Assembly: GCA_034658915.1 (NCBI GenBank) | Contig: JAYEGD010000290.1 | Span: forward strand, 1-26,112 | Length of the DNA: 26,112 nt | Source: Campylobacterota bacterium | GTDB taxonomy: Bacteria; Campylobacterota; Campylobacteria; Campylobacterales; Sulfurimonadaceae | Direction: 5' to 3' | Part shown: piece after piece, positions 3,320-20,345 of the stretch | Numbering within the stretch: the first letter of the stretch is position 1 | How the letters are laid out: each line of letters begins with the position of its first letter | Notes under the pieces: generated by a model | Seen by the model: the letters and a program-made list of their open reading frames with translations, nothing else | What the model was told of the DNA's origin: nothing | Database searches by the model: none | Made by a program: the position numbers and the translations under genes

Positions 3320-4431
3320 AAATTCAACTTCGTTAAAATAACTGAAAAAATAGCGTCACACAAAATAACTAAAAAAATTGAATTAACAACGCTAATGGTA
3401 GTGTAACGCCCAATACTCTCACTACTAGAAGATACTTGAAATCCTCTAAAACAGCTAATGGAAGCAATTAGTAGTGCAAAAAATGGTGCTTTAATTAACC
3501 CAATGTAAAAGTGTCTAATATTTAAAACATCTTGAGTTCTATCTAAAAACTCACTAAAAGTGATGTTTAGTTGTGCCTTTGCAACAACCATACCGCCAAA
3601 TATTCCGACAATATCTGCAACAAAAATAAGCAACACCATAGCAACCATAAGTGCAATAATACGAGGAAGAACTAAAAATCTGTACGGATTAAACCCCATA
3701 GCTTTCATAGCATCAATCTCTTCAGTTAGCTTCATAACGCCCAACTGAGCTGTGTAAGCTGAACCACTTCTTCCAGCTACAACCACCGCAGTCATAAGAG
3801 GTGCCAACTCTCTTGTTAAAGAGATAGTTATCATATCTACAACAAACATATTGGCGCCTAGTTTCTCTAACTGAACTGCACCTTGAAATGTTGTTACAAC
3901 ACCAATTAAGAATGATGTAACAAAAATGATGGGAAGTGCTTTTACTCCTGCGTCTTGAATGTGTCTAAAAATGGAGTTAAATCTTATGGAGCTAGGGTGT
4001 AAAATGTAGTAGATGAGCGCAAAAACACTCTCCCCAGTAAAGTTTAAAAAAAGTTTTAACTCATCTTTAATACCTACAAGATATTTGCCAATATAGTAAA
4101 ATAGGCTCTCTTTTTTAGTTACCTTAACTTCACTATTTTGCACACTGCTTAGTAGCTTGTAAAGCTCTAAATGTCTCTTTGTAGCACCCTTTACATGTAG
4201 TGCAATATTTGCTTTTTTCAATCTCTCATAAAACTCAATAAAAAGTAAAATAGATGAAGAGTCAAACTCCTTTACATCTTCTACATGTAGAACTACCTCT
4301 TTGATGTTTTTGAGTGAAATCTTTTTCAACTCTTTAGAGATTTCTCCCACTCTTTGTACTTTACAATTATCACTAACACTAATGTTAAGTCTCTCATCTT
4401 CTACATGTAGAGTAATCAATTTTACTTCCAC
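3316..4431 (-). CDS. mlaE: MlaE-like ABC permease with an N-terminal ~110-aa STAS/MlaB-like extension
   Basis: C-terminal ~260 aa polytopic permease typical of MlaE; N-terminal soluble region with an internal LHVED duplication; start overlaps the upstream gene. Confidence 0.7.
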   Translation of the reverse strand: MEVKLITLHVEDERLNISVSDNCKVQRVGEISKELKKISLKNIKEVVLHVEDVKEFDSSSILLFIEFYERLKKANIALHVKGATKRHLELYKLLSSVQNSEVKVTKKESLFYYIGKYLVGIKDELKLFLNFTGESVFALIYYILHPSSIRFNSIFRHIQDAGVKALPIIFVTSFLIGVVTTFQGAVQLEKLGANMFVVDMITISLTRELAPLMTAVVVAGRSGSAYTAQLGVMKLTEEIDAMKAMGFNPYRFLVLPRIIALMVAMVLLIFVADIVGIFGGMVVAKAQLNITFSEFLDRTQDVLNIRHFYIGLIKAPFFALLIASISCFRGFQVSSSSESIGRYTTISVVNSIFLVILCDAIFSVILTKLNL

Positions 4432-5675
4432 ATAGAGTTATTAATAAGTAAATGATACGCCAAATTTTTAAAAAATTTTCCAAAAGAGACAGATGTAAGC
4501 TTCTCAGTATTAATAGTAAAATTCAGACAAACAACATCTTGACTCACACACTGCGCACTATATGGTACAGCTGAGTTAAAAACTGCATATGCATCTACAA
4601 CAAACTCATTTGCACCAATATATTTTTCAATATCACGGCTAAAAAGCCTCACTTCACCAGAGATAAGCAGCAAAAGATGAGAGAAGTTTGTATCTTCAAC
4701 AACAATAAAATCTCCAGATCTATATTTTTTAAAAATTGCACTCTCTATGGAGTTCTCTAAATTCTTCTCATTAATATCTAAAAAGAGTCTCAACTTTTTT
4801 TGTAAAATAACCTTTGTAGGAGTAGTTGAAGCTACACTACTTTGTGCTAAATGTCTATCTGATGCATGTTTAAAGCAGTACTCTTTAGCTCCATTAATTC
4901 TCATTTTAAGAGCGTCATCAACAACAATTTTTGTAACAATATTTTTTGAGTAATACTCTAAAAATTTACAAATATTAAGTTCACCTCTAACACCAGAACG
5001 CAATAAAAAGTTCTCTATTAATTTAGAAGATTTTGCACGAGAAAACATCTCTTTATTGTACTCATAAGCATAAGTGTCTAAAATTTGAAAAAACTTACTC
5101 TCAATAGAGGATTTAATCTCCTCAAAAATATCAAAAAAAGCCCCTTTATGGTAATCATAAAAGTTATTTACATATTTAACAAGCTCTTTAATTGATTTGT
5201 CTAAAATATCCCTTTTATCAAGCACGTCGGCGTGTCGTGTGCGAAGATATTTTATGTTCTCTTCATTAGGATTTTGAATTTTTTTGTAAAGAGCATCTTC
5301 TTGTTTGTTTAACTCAATAAGTTCAAACTCTTCAGCTTCAAGCAACTCCACTTTGTCCATAAAGCTCTCTTGCTTTTTTAAAAAACTGTTTTCATAAAGG
5401 GTAAGAGAGTTTTTTGAACGCATTTTAAAGTTAAAATATTTGTCATAAATAGAGTTTAACTTAACAAAGGAGTCCTCTAACTCTTGAGTAATAATTCGCT
5501 CATCAATATTACGAAACAGCCCAGTTGCAGAACTTATGAGGTCTTTAAAAATAATATAGTGAAAATCTTCATCTGCTGAAGCAATACGTTCAAAAGAGTA
5601 GCTATCACTTACTAAAATATCATCTTTAAAATAGGTTACTATACTCTGCTTGTACTGTGAGGTTAACTTTGTCAT
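4422..5675 (-). CDS. Cyclic-nucleotide-binding-domain protein (C-terminal cNMP-binding/Crp-like domain)
   Basis: C-terminal segment GDFIVVEDTNFSHLLLLISGEVRLFS resembles a cNMP-binding beta-roll. The track ORF extends to 5801 but those codons overlap the tRNA, so the start was moved to the first Met after the tRNA (MTKLTSQYK). Confidence 0.5.
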   Translation of the reverse strand: MTKLTSQYKQSIVTYFKDDILVSDSYSFERIASADEDFHYIIFKDLISSATGLFRNIDERIITQELEDSFVKLNSIYDKYFNFKMRSKNSLTLYENSFLKKQESFMDKVELLEAEEFELIELNKQEDALYKKIQNPNEENIKYLRTRHADVLDKRDILDKSIKELVKYVNNFYDYHKGAFFDIFEEIKSSIESKFFQILDTYAYEYNKEMFSRAKSSKLIENFLLRSGVRGELNICKFLEYYSKNIVTKIVVDDALKMRINGAKEYCFKHASDRHLAQSSVASTTPTKVILQKKLRLFLDINEKNLENSIESAIFKKYRSGDFIVVEDTNFSHLLLLISGEVRLFSRDIEKYIGANEFVVDAYAVFNSAVPYSAQCVSQDVVCLNFTINTEKLTSVSFGKFFKNLAYHLLINNSMWK

Positions 5676-5748
5676 AAACAGTATAGTACCAAAAAAAGTG
5701 TTAAAATATGAGGAGTTAAAGGATAAAGTATATAAAAAAGTAGTATGA

Positions 5749-5823
5749 TGGTGCTCAATACTGGACTTGAACCAGTGACTTTTTCCTTGTCGAGGAAACA
5801 CTCTACCACTGAGTTAATCGAGC
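5749..5823 (-). tRNA. tRNA-Val (anticodon GAC), 75 nt including encoded CCA
   Basis: Manual cloverleaf: acceptor GCTCGAT/ATTGAGC (one G-U), D-stem ACTC/GAGT with AGTGGTA loop, anticodon stem TTTCC/GGAAA with loop TCGACAA, T-arm ACTGG-TTCAAGT-CCAGT, 3' ACCA. Position 33 is C rather than the usual U. Confidence 0.7.
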
Positions 5824-5876: not shown

Positions 5877-5928
5877 ATCCACTTTTATGATATTTGACAT
5901 ACTTTTTTATCTCCTTGAAATTTTATTA

Positions 5929-5934
5929 TATAAT
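5929..5934 (+). promoter_or_regulatory. Candidate sigma70-type -10 box (tataat) for the R-M operon
   Basis: TATAAT about 35 nt upstream of the first ATG of the 5970 ORF, in an AT-rich periodic-T region typical of epsilonproteobacterial promoters; TTGACA at 5894-5899 is too far away to serve as its -35. Confidence 0.3.
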
Positions 5935-5969
5935 TCAAAAAATATTCAGATAAATATTCATACTAATAA

Positions 5970-6962
5970 ATGGAACATATAATGAAAAAAGAATCTACTC
6001 AAACAAAGGATGGGAAAGCATTTGAATATTCTATTCTAAAAGAATTTAAAGAAAAACTAGGAAGTTCAACGACAGTAGAGGTTTTAGAAAACAATGCATT
6101 ATTAACAGCACAAAAACACTTTAATTCTTTTAAAAAAATAGAACAAGCAGAATTTCTACTTTATGCAAGTTTTGCAGTTAACTTTTTAATTGATATAGAA
6201 CCAAGATTATCTAACAGCTTTGATGAAGATGATATTTTACAATTAGAAATATTAACATATGACAAGGGACAAGATGGTGATGTGAGAGATGTTGTTGCTA
6301 TAAGATTATTACAAAAATGGGAAATAGGGATTTCAGCTAAAAATAATCATAAAGCTATAAAACACTCAAGACTTTCTAATAAAATAGATTTTGGAGAAAA
6401 ATGGCTTGGAATAAAATCATCAACACAATATTTCGATGAAATAAGACCAATATTTAACTCTCTTGAAAAAATGAGAACAGAAAGTAATAAAACTAAAACT
6501 TGGAAATCTTTAGGCGATTATCATCATACAGTATATATTCCTATATTAGAAGCCTTTAAAACAGAATTATTAAGAATATATAATACAAACCCTTCTCAAG
6601 TTGCTTCTACTTTAGTAGAGTATCTAATAGGAACTAAAGATTTTTATAAAGTAATTAAAAGTAGAAACAATATTGAAATTCAAGCATATAATTTGCACGG
6701 CACTTTAAATTTACCTTTTAAAGATATTAATCCTAAATTTAATACACCAAAAGTTAATTTACCAACTGAAATTACCAACATATCGTATAAAAAAGACACA
6801 CTAACAACTTTAATCGTTGAATTAAATAACGATTGGACACTATCTTTTCGAATTCATAATGCAAGTTCTAGAATTGAACCATCATTAAAATTTGATATAA
6901 ATTTACTAAAAGCACCTAATTCATTATTTACCAATAAACTTTCTATTGGAGGAGAAGAGTAA
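5970..6962 (+). CDS. Putative Type II restriction endonuclease, cognate partner of the downstream m5C methyltransferase
   Basis: 330-aa ORF whose stop overlaps the methyltransferase ATG by 1 nt (gagtaATGaat), with a GGAGGA ribosome-binding site for the downstream gene inside its 3' end; no recognisable family motifs beyond a possible D..E.K-like patch (DVRDVVAI...EIGISAK); assignment rests on position. Confidence 0.5.
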   Translation: MEHIMKKESTQTKDGKAFEYSILKEFKEKLGSSTTVEVLENNALLTAQKHFNSFKKIEQAEFLLYASFAVNFLIDIEPRLSNSFDEDDILQLEILTYDKGQDGDVRDVVAIRLLQKWEIGISAKNNHKAIKHSRLSNKIDFGEKWLGIKSSTQYFDEIRPIFNSLEKMRTESNKTKTWKSLGDYHHTVYIPILEAFKTELLRIYNTNPSQVASTLVEYLIGTKDFYKVIKSRNNIEIQAYNLHGTLNLPFKDINPKFNTPKVNLPTEITNISYKKDTLTTLIVELNNDWTLSFRIHNASSRIEPSLKFDINLLKAPNSLFTNKLSIGGEE

Positions 6963-8047
6963 TGAATATAATATCTCTGTTTTCTGGTGCTGGAGGATTG
7001 GATTTAGGTTTTGAAAAAGCAGGTTTTAAAACTATTTGGGCGAATGAATATGACAAAGAAATTTGGCAAACATTTGAAAAAAATTTTCCTGATACCATTT
7101 TAGATAGAAGAAGTATATCAAAAATAGCATCAGATGAAATACCAGAAACATTAGGACTTATCGGTGGACCTCCATGTCAAAGTTGGAGTGAAGCAGGAAA
7201 ATCAAGAGGGATAGAAGACCATAGGGGACAACTATTTTTTGAGTTTATAAGAGTTTTAAGAGATAAAAAACCTCTATTTTTCTTAGCTGAAAATGTTTCA
7301 GGAATGTTAGCTCCAAGACATGAAGATGCATTGGAAAATATAAAAAACCACTTTATCGATAGTGGATACACTTTATCGTTTAAACTCATGAATGCTCATG
7401 ATTATAAAGTGCCTCAAGATAGAAAAAGGATATTTTTTATTGGATTTAGAAATGACCTAAATATCACTTTTAAATTTCCAAAAGAGTTTGAAAAAAAACG
7501 ATTTTTAAAAGATGTTATTTCTGATTTAAAAGATAATGTACTTCCTGCTAAAGAAAAAAATTATACAAATGCTGATAAGTGCAAAATAGAAAATCATGAA
7601 TTTATGATTGGTGGATTTTCATCAATGTTTATGTCTAGAAATCGAGTTAGAGGTTGGGATGAACCATCATTTACAATTCAAGCGGGTGGAAGACATGCAC
7701 CACTACATCCACAAGCACCTAAGATGCAACTTGTAGAGCAAAATAAAAGAATATTTGTTCCACATAGTGAACATCTGTATAGAAGACTTAGTGTTAGAGA
7801 GTGTGCTAGAATACAAACATTCCCAGATAGTCATAAATTCTATTATAAAAATGTGACTGCTGGATATAAAATGGTTGGTAATGCTGTACCTCCTAACCTC
7901 GCATACTACTTAGCAAAAAAAATAATTGAAGACTTACAAAGTATTCATCCTAACAAAACAGTGGAACTCACAAATATACCTATCGCTGGTAATTCTAATT
8001 ATTACGAAAATAGCTATATTCCTGAAATTCAAGCTGTGTCAGGCTAG
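6962..8047 (+). CDS. DNA (cytosine-5)-methyltransferase, M.HaeIII-like (predicted GGCC specificity)
   Basis: Motif I FSGAGGLDLGF, motif IV GGPPCQSWSEAG, motif VI ENV, C-terminal GNAVPPNLA. From memory the sequence is near-collinear with M.HaeIII (MNLISLFSGAGGLDLGF...GGPPCQSWSEGG...FMSRNRVR.W.EP.FT.QA.GR...LHPQAP...HLYRRL.VRECAR.Q.FPD...GYKM.GNAVP.NLAY). Confidence 0.9.
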   Translation: MNIISLFSGAGGLDLGFEKAGFKTIWANEYDKEIWQTFEKNFPDTILDRRSISKIASDEIPETLGLIGGPPCQSWSEAGKSRGIEDHRGQLFFEFIRVLRDKKPLFFLAENVSGMLAPRHEDALENIKNHFIDSGYTLSFKLMNAHDYKVPQDRKRIFFIGFRNDLNITFKFPKEFEKKRFLKDVISDLKDNVLPAKEKNYTNADKCKIENHEFMIGGFSSMFMSRNRVRGWDEPSFTIQAGGRHAPLHPQAPKMQLVEQNKRIFVPHSEHLYRRLSVRECARIQTFPDSHKFYYKNVTAGYKMVGNAVPPNLAYYLAKKIIEDLQSIHPNKTVELTNIPIAGNSNYYENSYIPEIQAVSG

Positions 8048-8200
8048 AAGGTACATTTGTAGTTCAACACAACCGTTATGTTCACACCAAGAAAATCAAT
8101 GAGAGAATCATTTAAAAGTAAAATTATAGAAGTTTGCAATAAGAAAATTGAAACTAGAGGTTCAAATGTTTCATAAAAAGCATATAGAAGAACATTTTAT

Positions 8201-8308: not shown

Positions 8309-9259
8309 CTAAGCTTGATTTACGTTAGCATTATGTAAAGCATCATCAAGCTCTTGATCAGAAATCTTTTTCCATGTACTTAAGTCAATTCCAAGTGTAA
8401 CATCTCTTCTTAAATATTTAGCATTCTCTTTTTCTTGGTGTTCTAGTAACTCTAGCACATCCTTGATATCAATCATAGCACCATCATTTCTTGGCATAAC
8501 TCCATAATCTGCTGGGTCGCTAAAGTCTCCTGTTAGGGCTCTGATTAATGTATCACTCTCTACAATATTGAAGTCATTAATAGCCTCATTTATATCAACT
8601 TTTATTCCCATCTCATCGAGTAATTTCAGTTGAGTTCTGAATGCTACATCTTCCCACTCTACCGCTCTTTGAGCGTTTAATAAAGACAAACCAGAATAGA
8701 TTTTTTTATCATTTTTGTTGTATGGATTCTTAATATCAAAAGATAAAGCACCAAACCTCTTGCTATCTCCATATCGTGACTGCATAAGAGTTTCTGTGAG
8801 CGCATGAGCTAGTTCATGAACTCCTCTCCATACTTTTGTATATTCTACATCATTAAATGCACCATGAGCAGAGTAAGGGTCATAAACAAAAATATTACCT
8901 TTTGCATAGCCATTCTTTTTAAGGCTTCTACTAGATGGCTGTTTAATTATTGTCTTCTCTCCAATTTTTCTACCAATATTGTCTGGATTCGTAGAAATAT
9001 ATTCAATATTGTATCCATACTTTTTAGCTAATTCATCTATGTAGTTTGGATTTTCAACCAGCTTACTTAATACGATAGACTTTAGCATATCAGCACTATT
9101 TTTGTTTGAGAACATCTCAAAAGTTCTACTAAATATAGCTTTGCACAAAGTATCAAAAGATTTTTTATCTCCCTGAGATGCCTTTTGTACAAGTTCAGCA
9201 GGCGCAGCAGATGTATTTATATGATGGCTAGTTGCATTAGTGTCGTTTGCTTTATTCAT
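8309..9259 (-). CDS. HExxH zinc-metalloprotease-like protein
   Basis: 316 aa with a single HELAH motif at residues 148-152 (WRGVHELAHALTE); GGAG ribosome-binding site; family not assignable from memory. Confidence 0.5.
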   Translation of the reverse strand: MNKANDTNATSHHINTSAAPAELVQKASQGDKKSFDTLCKAIFSRTFEMFSNKNSADMLKSIVLSKLVENPNYIDELAKKYGYNIEYISTNPDNIGRKIGEKTIIKQPSSRSLKKNGYAKGNIFVYDPYSAHGAFNDVEYTKVWRGVHELAHALTETLMQSRYGDSKRFGALSFDIKNPYNKNDKKIYSGLSLLNAQRAVEWEDVAFRTQLKLLDEMGIKVDINEAINDFNIVESDTLIRALTGDFSDPADYGVMPRNDGAMIDIKDVLELLEHQEKENAKYLRRDVTLGIDLSTWKKISDQELDDALHNANVNQA

Positions 9260-9275: not shown

Positions 9276-9704
9276 TTAACTTATATCTTCTATTTTACTA
9301 CTTTTAAGTAAAACTTTTTTAGTTTGACATTCGATATATTCTAAAAAATGGTAACTGTTGTAAAAAATACTATACTGTTCATATTTCATACCAAGACTTA
9401 GTGCATCATTTTTACTGATTCTATAAACAATAAAGCTATCTTCTTTGTGCTCATCACACTTTCCAACTGTACCCTCATATTCATATTTCAAAGCCTTTAA
9501 ATCATCTTCTAACTTATGGTTGAGTATCTTGTTTTCTGCCTCTGAAAGTTCTCTATTCATAGGGTTCCATGCTGTAATAATAGCAAATGGTATATCTAAA
9601 GATAGACTCTCTTCTAACTCTTCAATACCAACCCAAATTTCTTCTGATTTATTCTTAAATAGAAATTTATTGCGTCTGTAAATATCTATGAGTTGCACAG
9701 TCAT
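9276..9704 (-). CDS. Hypothetical 142-aa protein (possibly DUF3293-like; motif FAIITAWNP)
   Basis: ORF 16 nt upstream of and co-oriented with the HExxH gene; domain guess is from memory only and weak. Confidence 0.4.
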   Translation of the reverse strand: MTVQLIDIYRRNKFLFKNKSEEIWVGIEELEESLSLDIPFAIITAWNPMNRELSEAENKILNHKLEDDLKALKYEYEGTVGKCDEHKEDSFIVYRISKNDALSLGMKYEQYSIFYNSYHFLEYIECQTKKVLLKSSKIEDIS

Positions 9705-19652: not shown

Positions 19653-20345
19653 ATGAAAAAACAACTACTAACACTGGCTATGAGTGTTGCTGCACTTAGT
19701 GCTATGCAAAATAGCGATTTTGATAAACTAGAGGTGTTTAAAAGTAAAGGTGCTAAAACAGTAGCAAACAAACTAGTTGGTAAAAACTTGGATTTATATA
19801 TTGTTAGAGGTATTGATGGACGTGGAAACAGCTATGAAATAGTTGTAGATTCAACAGGTAGGTACATAGTTCCAACTGCCAGTGTTTTAGATATGAACAT
19901 CCAAGAAGCGATAAAAATTCCACTAGATATGTCAAAGTTAAAAGGTAAAGAAGCATTTAGTTATGGAAGCGGTAAAAATGAGTATTACGTGTTTACTGAT
20001 CCTGAGTGTCACTATTGTAAAAAGTTTGAGAAGATGTGGCCCTCACTAAGTAAAGATATTAAGCTTAATGTCTATCTTTACAACTTGCCATTTCATAAAG
20101 AGGCTAACAGTATGAGCAACTGGATTTTAAGTGCAAAAAATAGCAAAGAGAAAGCACAAAGGCTAATAGATATTGCTAATGGCTCAACTAAGTACAAAAG
20201 TGCTAAATATAGTGCAGATGAGATTAAAAAATTAAATGAGATATTGGCAAAACAAAAAGCGTTAGGTGTTGCTTATGGTGTTAAAGGAACTCCAACTGTG
20301 CTAGACTCTAAGGGCAACTCTGTTGTGTGGACAAATTTAAAGTAA
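19653..20345 (+). CDS. Periplasmic thiol:disulfide interchange protein, DsbC/DsbG-like
   Basis: Signal peptide MKKQLLTLAMSVAALSA, thioredoxin-fold CHYC active site (YVFTDPECHYCKKFE), N-terminal dimerisation-like domain; start chosen at the Met preceded by an AGGAAG ribosome-binding site rather than the track's 19605. Confidence 0.7.
   Translation: MKKQLLTLAMSVAALSAMQNSDFDKLEVFKSKGAKTVANKLVGKNLDLYIVRGIDGRGNSYEIVVDSTGRYIVPTASVLDMNIQEAIKIPLDMSKLKGKEAFSYGSGKNEYYVFTDPECHYCKKFEKMWPSLSKDIKLNVYLYNLPFHKEANSMSNWILSAKNSKEKAQRLIDIANGSTKYKSAKYSADEIKKLNEILAKQKALGVAYGVKGTPTVLDSKGNSVVWTNLK

Follow-up and report, generated by a model that had tools for sequence, protein, structure and literature searches.

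The DNA analysed here is a stretch of 26,112 nucleotides (the window) from contig JAYEGD010000290.1 of a Campylobacterota bacterium of the family Sulfurimonadaceae, and it carries two adjacent genes that very probably form a two-gene Type IIP restriction-modification (R-M) system of the HaeIII type, apparently intact. In the list of open reading frames (ORFs), the endonuclease frame (R) spans 5970..6962 (330 residues) and the methyltransferase frame (M) spans 6962..8047 (361 residues), both on the + strand. The two meet in the sequence gag TAATG aat, where the stop codon TAA of R (6960-6962) and the start codon ATG of M (6962-6964) have one nucleotide in common. An earlier reading of this DNA from its letters and ORF translations (the sequence-only reading) had described two ORFs on the same strand joined by a TAATG overlap, and both the coordinates and the junction agree with that description. 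Relatives of R are 325-326 residues long, and in L003, the closest of them, the upstream ATG does not lie in frame. The true start of R is therefore most likely ATG 5982 rather than ATG 5970, and the residues of R are numbered here from ATG 5982. Taken together, R and M display every property of a HaeIII-type system that can be looked for in sequence.

Table 1 Features of the R-M pair and its immediate surroundings in the window
Feature	Position	Strand	Basis and remarks
tRNA-Val(GAC), host flank just left of the cassette	5749..5823	-	ARAGORN; Rfam RF00005, 65.9 bits
Upstream region travelling with the cassette	5885..5981	+	Alignment with six Campylobacterota relatives, conserved from about 5885-5892
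TATATAnTT box, likely -10 element	5927-5935	+	Invariant in the alignment; putative promoter
Weak GGA ribosome-binding site of R	5972-5974	+	Seven nucleotides before ATG 5982
HaeIII-family Type IIP restriction endonuclease gene (R)	5982..6962	+	326 residues; open frame runs back to ATG 5970 (330 residues)
Strong Shine-Dalgarno sequence of M, GGAGGAG	6948..6954	+	Within the 3' end of R, seven nucleotides before ATG 6962; read from the sequence
M.HaeIII-like DNA (cytosine-5) methyltransferase gene (M)	6962..8047	+	361 residues; predicted product GGm5CC
Conserved short 3' tail of the cassette	8048..8085	+	blastn match to L002 runs to 8082; end alignment

The identity of R is revealed by Pfam family PF09556 (HaeIII restriction endonuclease, RE_HaeIII), which it matches with 322.5 bits against a cut-off of 25 (E = 3e-96) over positions 1-297 of the 298 in the model. 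At E <= 1, the Pfam scan returned only RE_HaeIII and two chance-level matches, and other restriction-enzyme families were unmatched. R also matches the PADLOC REase_II model PDLC03430 (E = 8.4e-99), whereas NCBIfam gave no match. The sequence-only reading had found no known endonuclease family for the 330-residue ORF, which proved mistaken, as the ORF is a full-length member of PF09556. Through this family model R can be likened to R.HaeIII of Haemophilus aegyptius, and R and M lie adjacent on one strand as they do in that prototype. Database searches returned 6,509 relatives of R, the best of which is 91% identical, and many of these, in Sulfurovum, Sulfurimonas, Halarcobacter, and others, are named HaeIII family restriction endonuclease. 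An exhaustive search counted 820 clusters of R among 50%-identity representatives, and annotated family members occur on six plasmids, while none was found in phages. HaeIII, NgoPII, and BsuRI are described in the literature as convergent, unrelated solutions to the cleavage of GGCC (PMC4081073; PMC2978348). The enzymes NgoPII/MthTI/FnuDI, BsuRI, and BspRI resemble R in their predicted target and in the type of methyltransferase that accompanies them, but R follows the HaeIII solution and had no match to the other families in the Pfam scan.

M contains the motifs of a DNA (cytosine-5) methyltransferase in canonical order, namely FSGAGG at residue 7, GPPCQ at 69 (including Cys72), ENV at 110, QDRKR at 152, RE at 279, and GNAVP at 306. 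It matches Pfam PF00145 over residues 1-322 (E = 7.6e-97) as well as TIGR00675 (E = 1.8e-80). When compared with all PDB sequences, M finds the M.HaeIII entries 1DCT (E = 3.2e-128) and 3UBT (E = 3.9e-127) at the top, with residues 1-321 aligned on residues 1-320, and the next match is M.HhaI, which aligns in two pieces (E = 2.4e-47) and reaches 165 bits against 431 bits for M.HaeIII. The pairwise identity of M and M.HaeIII is 59.1% over 325 positions with a single one-residue indel, and it amounts to 58% in the catalytic half, 59% in the target-recognition region (residues 181-270 of M.HaeIII), and 62% in the C-terminal part. M differs from the prototype in about 35 extra C-terminal residues (326-361), which are absent from M.HaeIII but present in close Campylobacterota relatives. 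In M.HaeIII, Ser224, Arg225, and Arg227 contact the bases of GGCC, and substitution of Arg243 shifts the specificity (Rockah-Shmuel and Tawfik, PMC3526282). These four residues and Cys71 of M.HaeIII correspond to Ser225, Arg226, Arg228, Arg244, and Cys72 of M, and all of them are conserved. Since M is collinear with M.HaeIII and keeps the residues that contact GGCC, we infer that M recognizes GGCC and methylates its inner cytosine. The sequence-only reading had anticipated much of this: the motifs FSGAGG, GPPCQ, and ENV that it named were all located, the collinearity that it described, target-recognition region included, was borne out by the alignment, and its prediction of GGCC gains support from the direct comparison with M.HaeIII.

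According to this assignment, M would rely on S-adenosylmethionine and on Cys72 as the catalytic residue, methylating the inner cytosine in both strands of GGCC and thereby protecting the host DNA, and R would cleave incoming DNA at unmethylated GGCC sites, by analogy with its family at GG^CC to leave blunt ends. The locus is thus a standard copy of a well-known system whose family has already been described, and the potentially exciting element of the sequence-only reading, a novel endonuclease, is wrong. An exact-sequence look-up found no protein on record identical to M, and the best database identities for the proteins of the pair are 91-92%, so the pair is a new member of a known family. 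The proper annotation is a HaeIII-family Type II R-M system with predicted GGCC specificity, and the significance of the locus beyond annotation is small. For anyone transforming this organism, incoming DNA would need to be pre-methylated by M.HaeIII or freed of GGCC sites.

The association of the two genes extends across the family. Of 82 related loci examined in genomes, 81 have a homolog of R and an M.HaeIII-like gene side by side on one strand. R comes first (R-then-M) in 66 of the loci and M comes first (M-then-R) in 16, the latter mostly from Bacteroidota. In the R-then-M loci, the distance from the stop of R to the start of M ranges from -4 to +16 nucleotides and is at most 10 nucleotides in 64 of the 65 measured junctions, and in close Campylobacterota relatives the genes overlap by ATGA (-4) or TAATG (-1). 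Judged by these junctions, the tight spacing is a trait of the family and no peculiarity of the window locus. In the Bacteroidota-type members with the M-then-R order (L027, L041, L053, L062, L067, L069-L072, L074, L076-L078, L080, and L081), the two genes likewise overlap slightly or lie only a few nucleotides apart, which indicates that the gene order was swapped at least once with the tight junction kept.

The arrangement in the window suggests a single operon, transcribed R-then-M from the conserved upstream region, in which M would be translated no less well than R, whether ribosomes initiate at its own site or restart at the overlap. Both G's and the following A of the weak GGA site of R are invariant in close relatives, and GGAG/GAGG-like sequences occupy the position of the Shine-Dalgarno sequence of M in close relatives. 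The weak site of R, the strong site of M, and the TAATG junction would together favor M over R with no separate controller protein. The sequence-only reading had noted both the R-before-M order and the lack of a controller gene; the order is confirmed, with a one-nucleotide overlap, and no controller gene was found beside the pair, where the flanking spaces of 146 bp and 261 bp contain six small ORFs (30-58 residues) with no Pfam match at E <= 1. The pair is therefore distinct from C-protein-controlled R-M systems, as it has no small helix-turn-helix controller.

The coupled expression that the sequence-only reading drew from this order is compatible with the sequence, although M also has its own strong Shine-Dalgarno sequence. 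M could instead be expressed independently of R: its own ribosome-binding site would direct translation, and transcription might begin at an internal promoter in the R gene, as it does in certain other systems with R ahead of M. We regard this possibility as somewhat doubtful yet worth keeping in view. It draws on the strong GGAGGAG seven nucleotides before the start codon of M, on promoter-like hexamers inside R at 6518-6584, and on the junctions of many relatives, which have a gap of 1-16 nucleotides and no overlap. However, a scan for sigma-70 promoters and terminators found 6 promoter-like sites compared with 15.6 in shuffled sequence, so that in this AT-rich region the sites within R carry no weight as evidence for an internal promoter, and the near-universal spacing of 10 nucleotides or less in R-then-M loci is what coupling predicts.

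The leader of the window copy (5935-5981) is shorter than that of its relatives. All six of the Campylobacterota relatives compared (L003:5925-6003 and five other loci) carry a segment of 45-50 nucleotides between the TATATAnTT box and the start codon, with the consensus AAAATTAGTTCAAAAGnGAAnTTTAGCTATTATC, and the window is without it. A conserved RNA structure in the leader of the relatives was not supported (-0.72 kcal/mol, no covariation). The window copy may thereby have lost an operator or a second promoter.

The loss of part of the leader upstream of R is also one of two observations that would fit an R inactivated by point mutation, with M left as a de facto orphan. The other is that R-M decay is known in a relative: in Halarcobacter anaerophilus (L001:6978-8059, JXXG01000001.1), M is split into ORFs of 181 and 146 residues beside an apparently intact R gene. 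A split M is odd next to a toxic R gene, and it could reflect a sequencing error, bypass of the frameshift, or an inactive R in that genome. In an alignment of 86 diverse members of the R family (33-61% identity), 12 residues are invariant, namely Gly11, Glu73, Asp100, Asp103, Lys120, Lys127, Arg130, Trp141, Gly217, Trp285, Arg290, and His292, and R of the window keeps all 12 together with the near-invariant residues. As its ORF is also of full length and the protein is modelled with high confidence, inactivation of R is improbable.

A drift in specificity, by which a pair of correctly assigned families would recognize a subset or an expanded form of GGCC, is very unlikely as well. M is just 59% identical to the M.HaeIII prototype, and a few substitutions at Ser224, Arg225, Arg227, or Arg243 of M.HaeIII can broaden or shift the target in laboratory evolution (PMC3526282), but exactly those four residues are conserved in M, its target-recognition region is collinear with that of M.HaeIII, and the depleted word is GGCC itself, both in the window and across the related loci. 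This depletion lends independent, if indirect, support to GGCC as the target of the pair. A Markov model predicts 8.2 GGCC sites for the window, which contains a single one (at 20038), a ratio of 0.12 (Poisson P = 0.0025). In the 82 R-carrying loci, which total 789 kb, none of the 16 four-base palindromes is more depleted than GGCC, with 485 occurrences against 1,143 expected (ratio 0.42), and its ratio lies below 0.5 in 44 of the 68 loci having at least three expected sites.

Two other words are also scarce in the window. GATC is strongly depleted, with 11 occurrences compared with 56.5 expected, and CCGG is absent, with 1.9 expected. This suggests that restriction at GATC, and perhaps at CCGG, has also been part of the history of the lineage, although no such system lies within the window.

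Comparisons at the level of structure place R less readily. Sequence and profile searches of R against PDB gave nothing meaningful, and Foldseek found nothing in PDB for the R model at E <= 0.001. Although no solved structure can thus be detected by sequence and NCBIfam is silent, the proposal that the upstream ORF represents a new or strongly diverged family of GGCC endonucleases, or no nuclease at all, can be set aside as practically untenable, having been ruled out by the full-length PF09556 match, with the PADLOC REase_II match, the thousands of relatives, and the M.HaeIII-like neighbor in nearly every related locus all pointing the same way. The HaeIII family itself was filed under "unknown superfamily" in a structural classification of 2008 (PMC2441816), and the text of a 2012 census of PD-(D/E)XK enzymes does not mention it (PMC3424549).

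The AlphaFold2 model of R, built with 51 family sequences, has a predicted local distance difference test score (pLDDT) of 87.8 and a predicted template modelling score (pTM) of 0.81. It comprises a helix at 52-77, strands at 85-90, 104-108, 113-121, and 126-131, and a helix at 148-167. In this model, the invariant Glu73 lies at the end of the first helix, the invariant Asp100 just before a strand, and the near-invariant Ser118 and the invariant Lys120 in the next strand. This order of secondary structure puts Glu73, Asp100, and Ser118/Lys120 where PD-(D/E)XK enzymes hold their catalytic residues. In a BspRI-like GGCC enzyme aligned to MspI, the corresponding residues are Asp47, Ser65, and Lys67, compared with Asn117 of MspI (PMC7559349), and the D-X17-S-x-K spacing of R equals that of the BspRI-like enzyme (PMC7559349). 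MspI and HinP1I bind four-base-pair palindromes as monomers (PMC1874612), and the GGCC enzymes BspRI and BsuRI cut the two strands sequentially (PMC2978348).

On the basis of the model, R may have a Mg2+-dependent active site of the PD-(D/E)XK type, with Glu73, Asp100, and Ser118-x-Lys120 as candidate residues, in a fold like that of the monomeric four-base-pair cutters HinP1I and MspI. We consider the chances evenly balanced that HaeIII-family endonucleases are MspI/HinP1I-like PD-(D/E)XK enzymes with a non-canonical E...D-X17-S-x-K site, probably acting as monomers that nick first one strand of GGCC and then the other. The catalytic residues, the position of cleavage, and the monomeric action of R are all inferred. 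The resemblance to MspI and HinP1I is one of fold only, since sequence and profile similarity is undetectable, and membership in their families is not claimed. Moreover, those enzymes cut CCGG and GCGC to leave two-nucleotide overhangs, whereas R is predicted to cut GGCC to blunt ends, and R exceeds them in length by about 80 residues and has an additional C-terminal beta domain in the model. If the model is right, this fold-level link between the structurally uncharacterized R.HaeIII family and the monomeric MspI and HinP1I would be a mildly useful by-product of the analysis.

The pair and its short borders travel together. At the DNA level, the window resembles its relatives (80-92% identity by blastn) only in a segment from about 5892/5951 through 8030/8082, and alignments of both ends place the start of conservation at about 5885-5892 and its end at about 8085. 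Compared with cassettes annotated as HaeIII-family R-M in Sulfurospirillum, Sulfurimonas, Halarcobacter, and Arcobacteraceae genomes, the R protein is 80-91% and the M protein 82-92% identical, and these cassettes share the R-then-M order, the overlap of -1 or -4 nucleotides, the TATATAnTT box, and the 3' tail. However, the window locus lies in a different genomic neighborhood: the related loci contain no counterpart of any of the seven proteins compared from its flanks, and the neighborhoods of the relatives are unrelated. The GC content is 27-28% across the R-M pair compared with 30-36% around it. With similarity lost beyond about 5890 on one side and 8085 on the other, and with different flanks, the alignments identify the pair as part of a mobile cassette of about 2.2 kb that has moved horizontally among Campylobacterota and beyond, one more small R-M unit spreading among these bacteria and many other phyla. 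Direct or inverted repeats at the ends of the cassette amounted to only short, chance-level matches.

The flanks are made up of ordinary chromosomal genes, including those for an alanine symporter, the MlaDEF transporter, MoaC, and MobA. An exact-sequence look-up of MoaC gave no match. The cassette lies on the 5' side of the tRNA-Val(GAC) gene, not at the 3' end where integrases usually act. This tRNA gene overlaps the 5' part of a listed 459-residue ORF (4422-5801, - strand) with a cyclic nucleoside monophosphate (cNMP)-binding domain, whose true start is probably an ATG near 5675, giving 417 residues. In the search for an empty site, no relatives of this cNMP-binding neighbor were found in metagenomes, and the relatives of MlaE were distant (at most 59% identical). 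In one distant relative, metagenome contig Ga0256831_1031413 (L083:1-1846), MoaC/DUF493 lies 140 bp from MlaE in divergent orientation. The same interval in the window measures about 5.5 kb and contains the genes for a DUF3293 protein, an HExxH protein, M, R, tRNA-Val, and the cNMP-domain protein, so the interval may be a variable region, which is a hint rather than proof of an insertion. The neighboring genes of unknown function gave no matches to PHROGs or NCBIfam. Directly to the right of the cassette (8309-9259, - strand) is the 316-residue protein with the HExxH motif (VHELAHAL), for which Pfam, NCBIfam, PHROG, and PADLOC returned no match, and it is adjoined by the DUF3293 protein (9276-9704, - strand).
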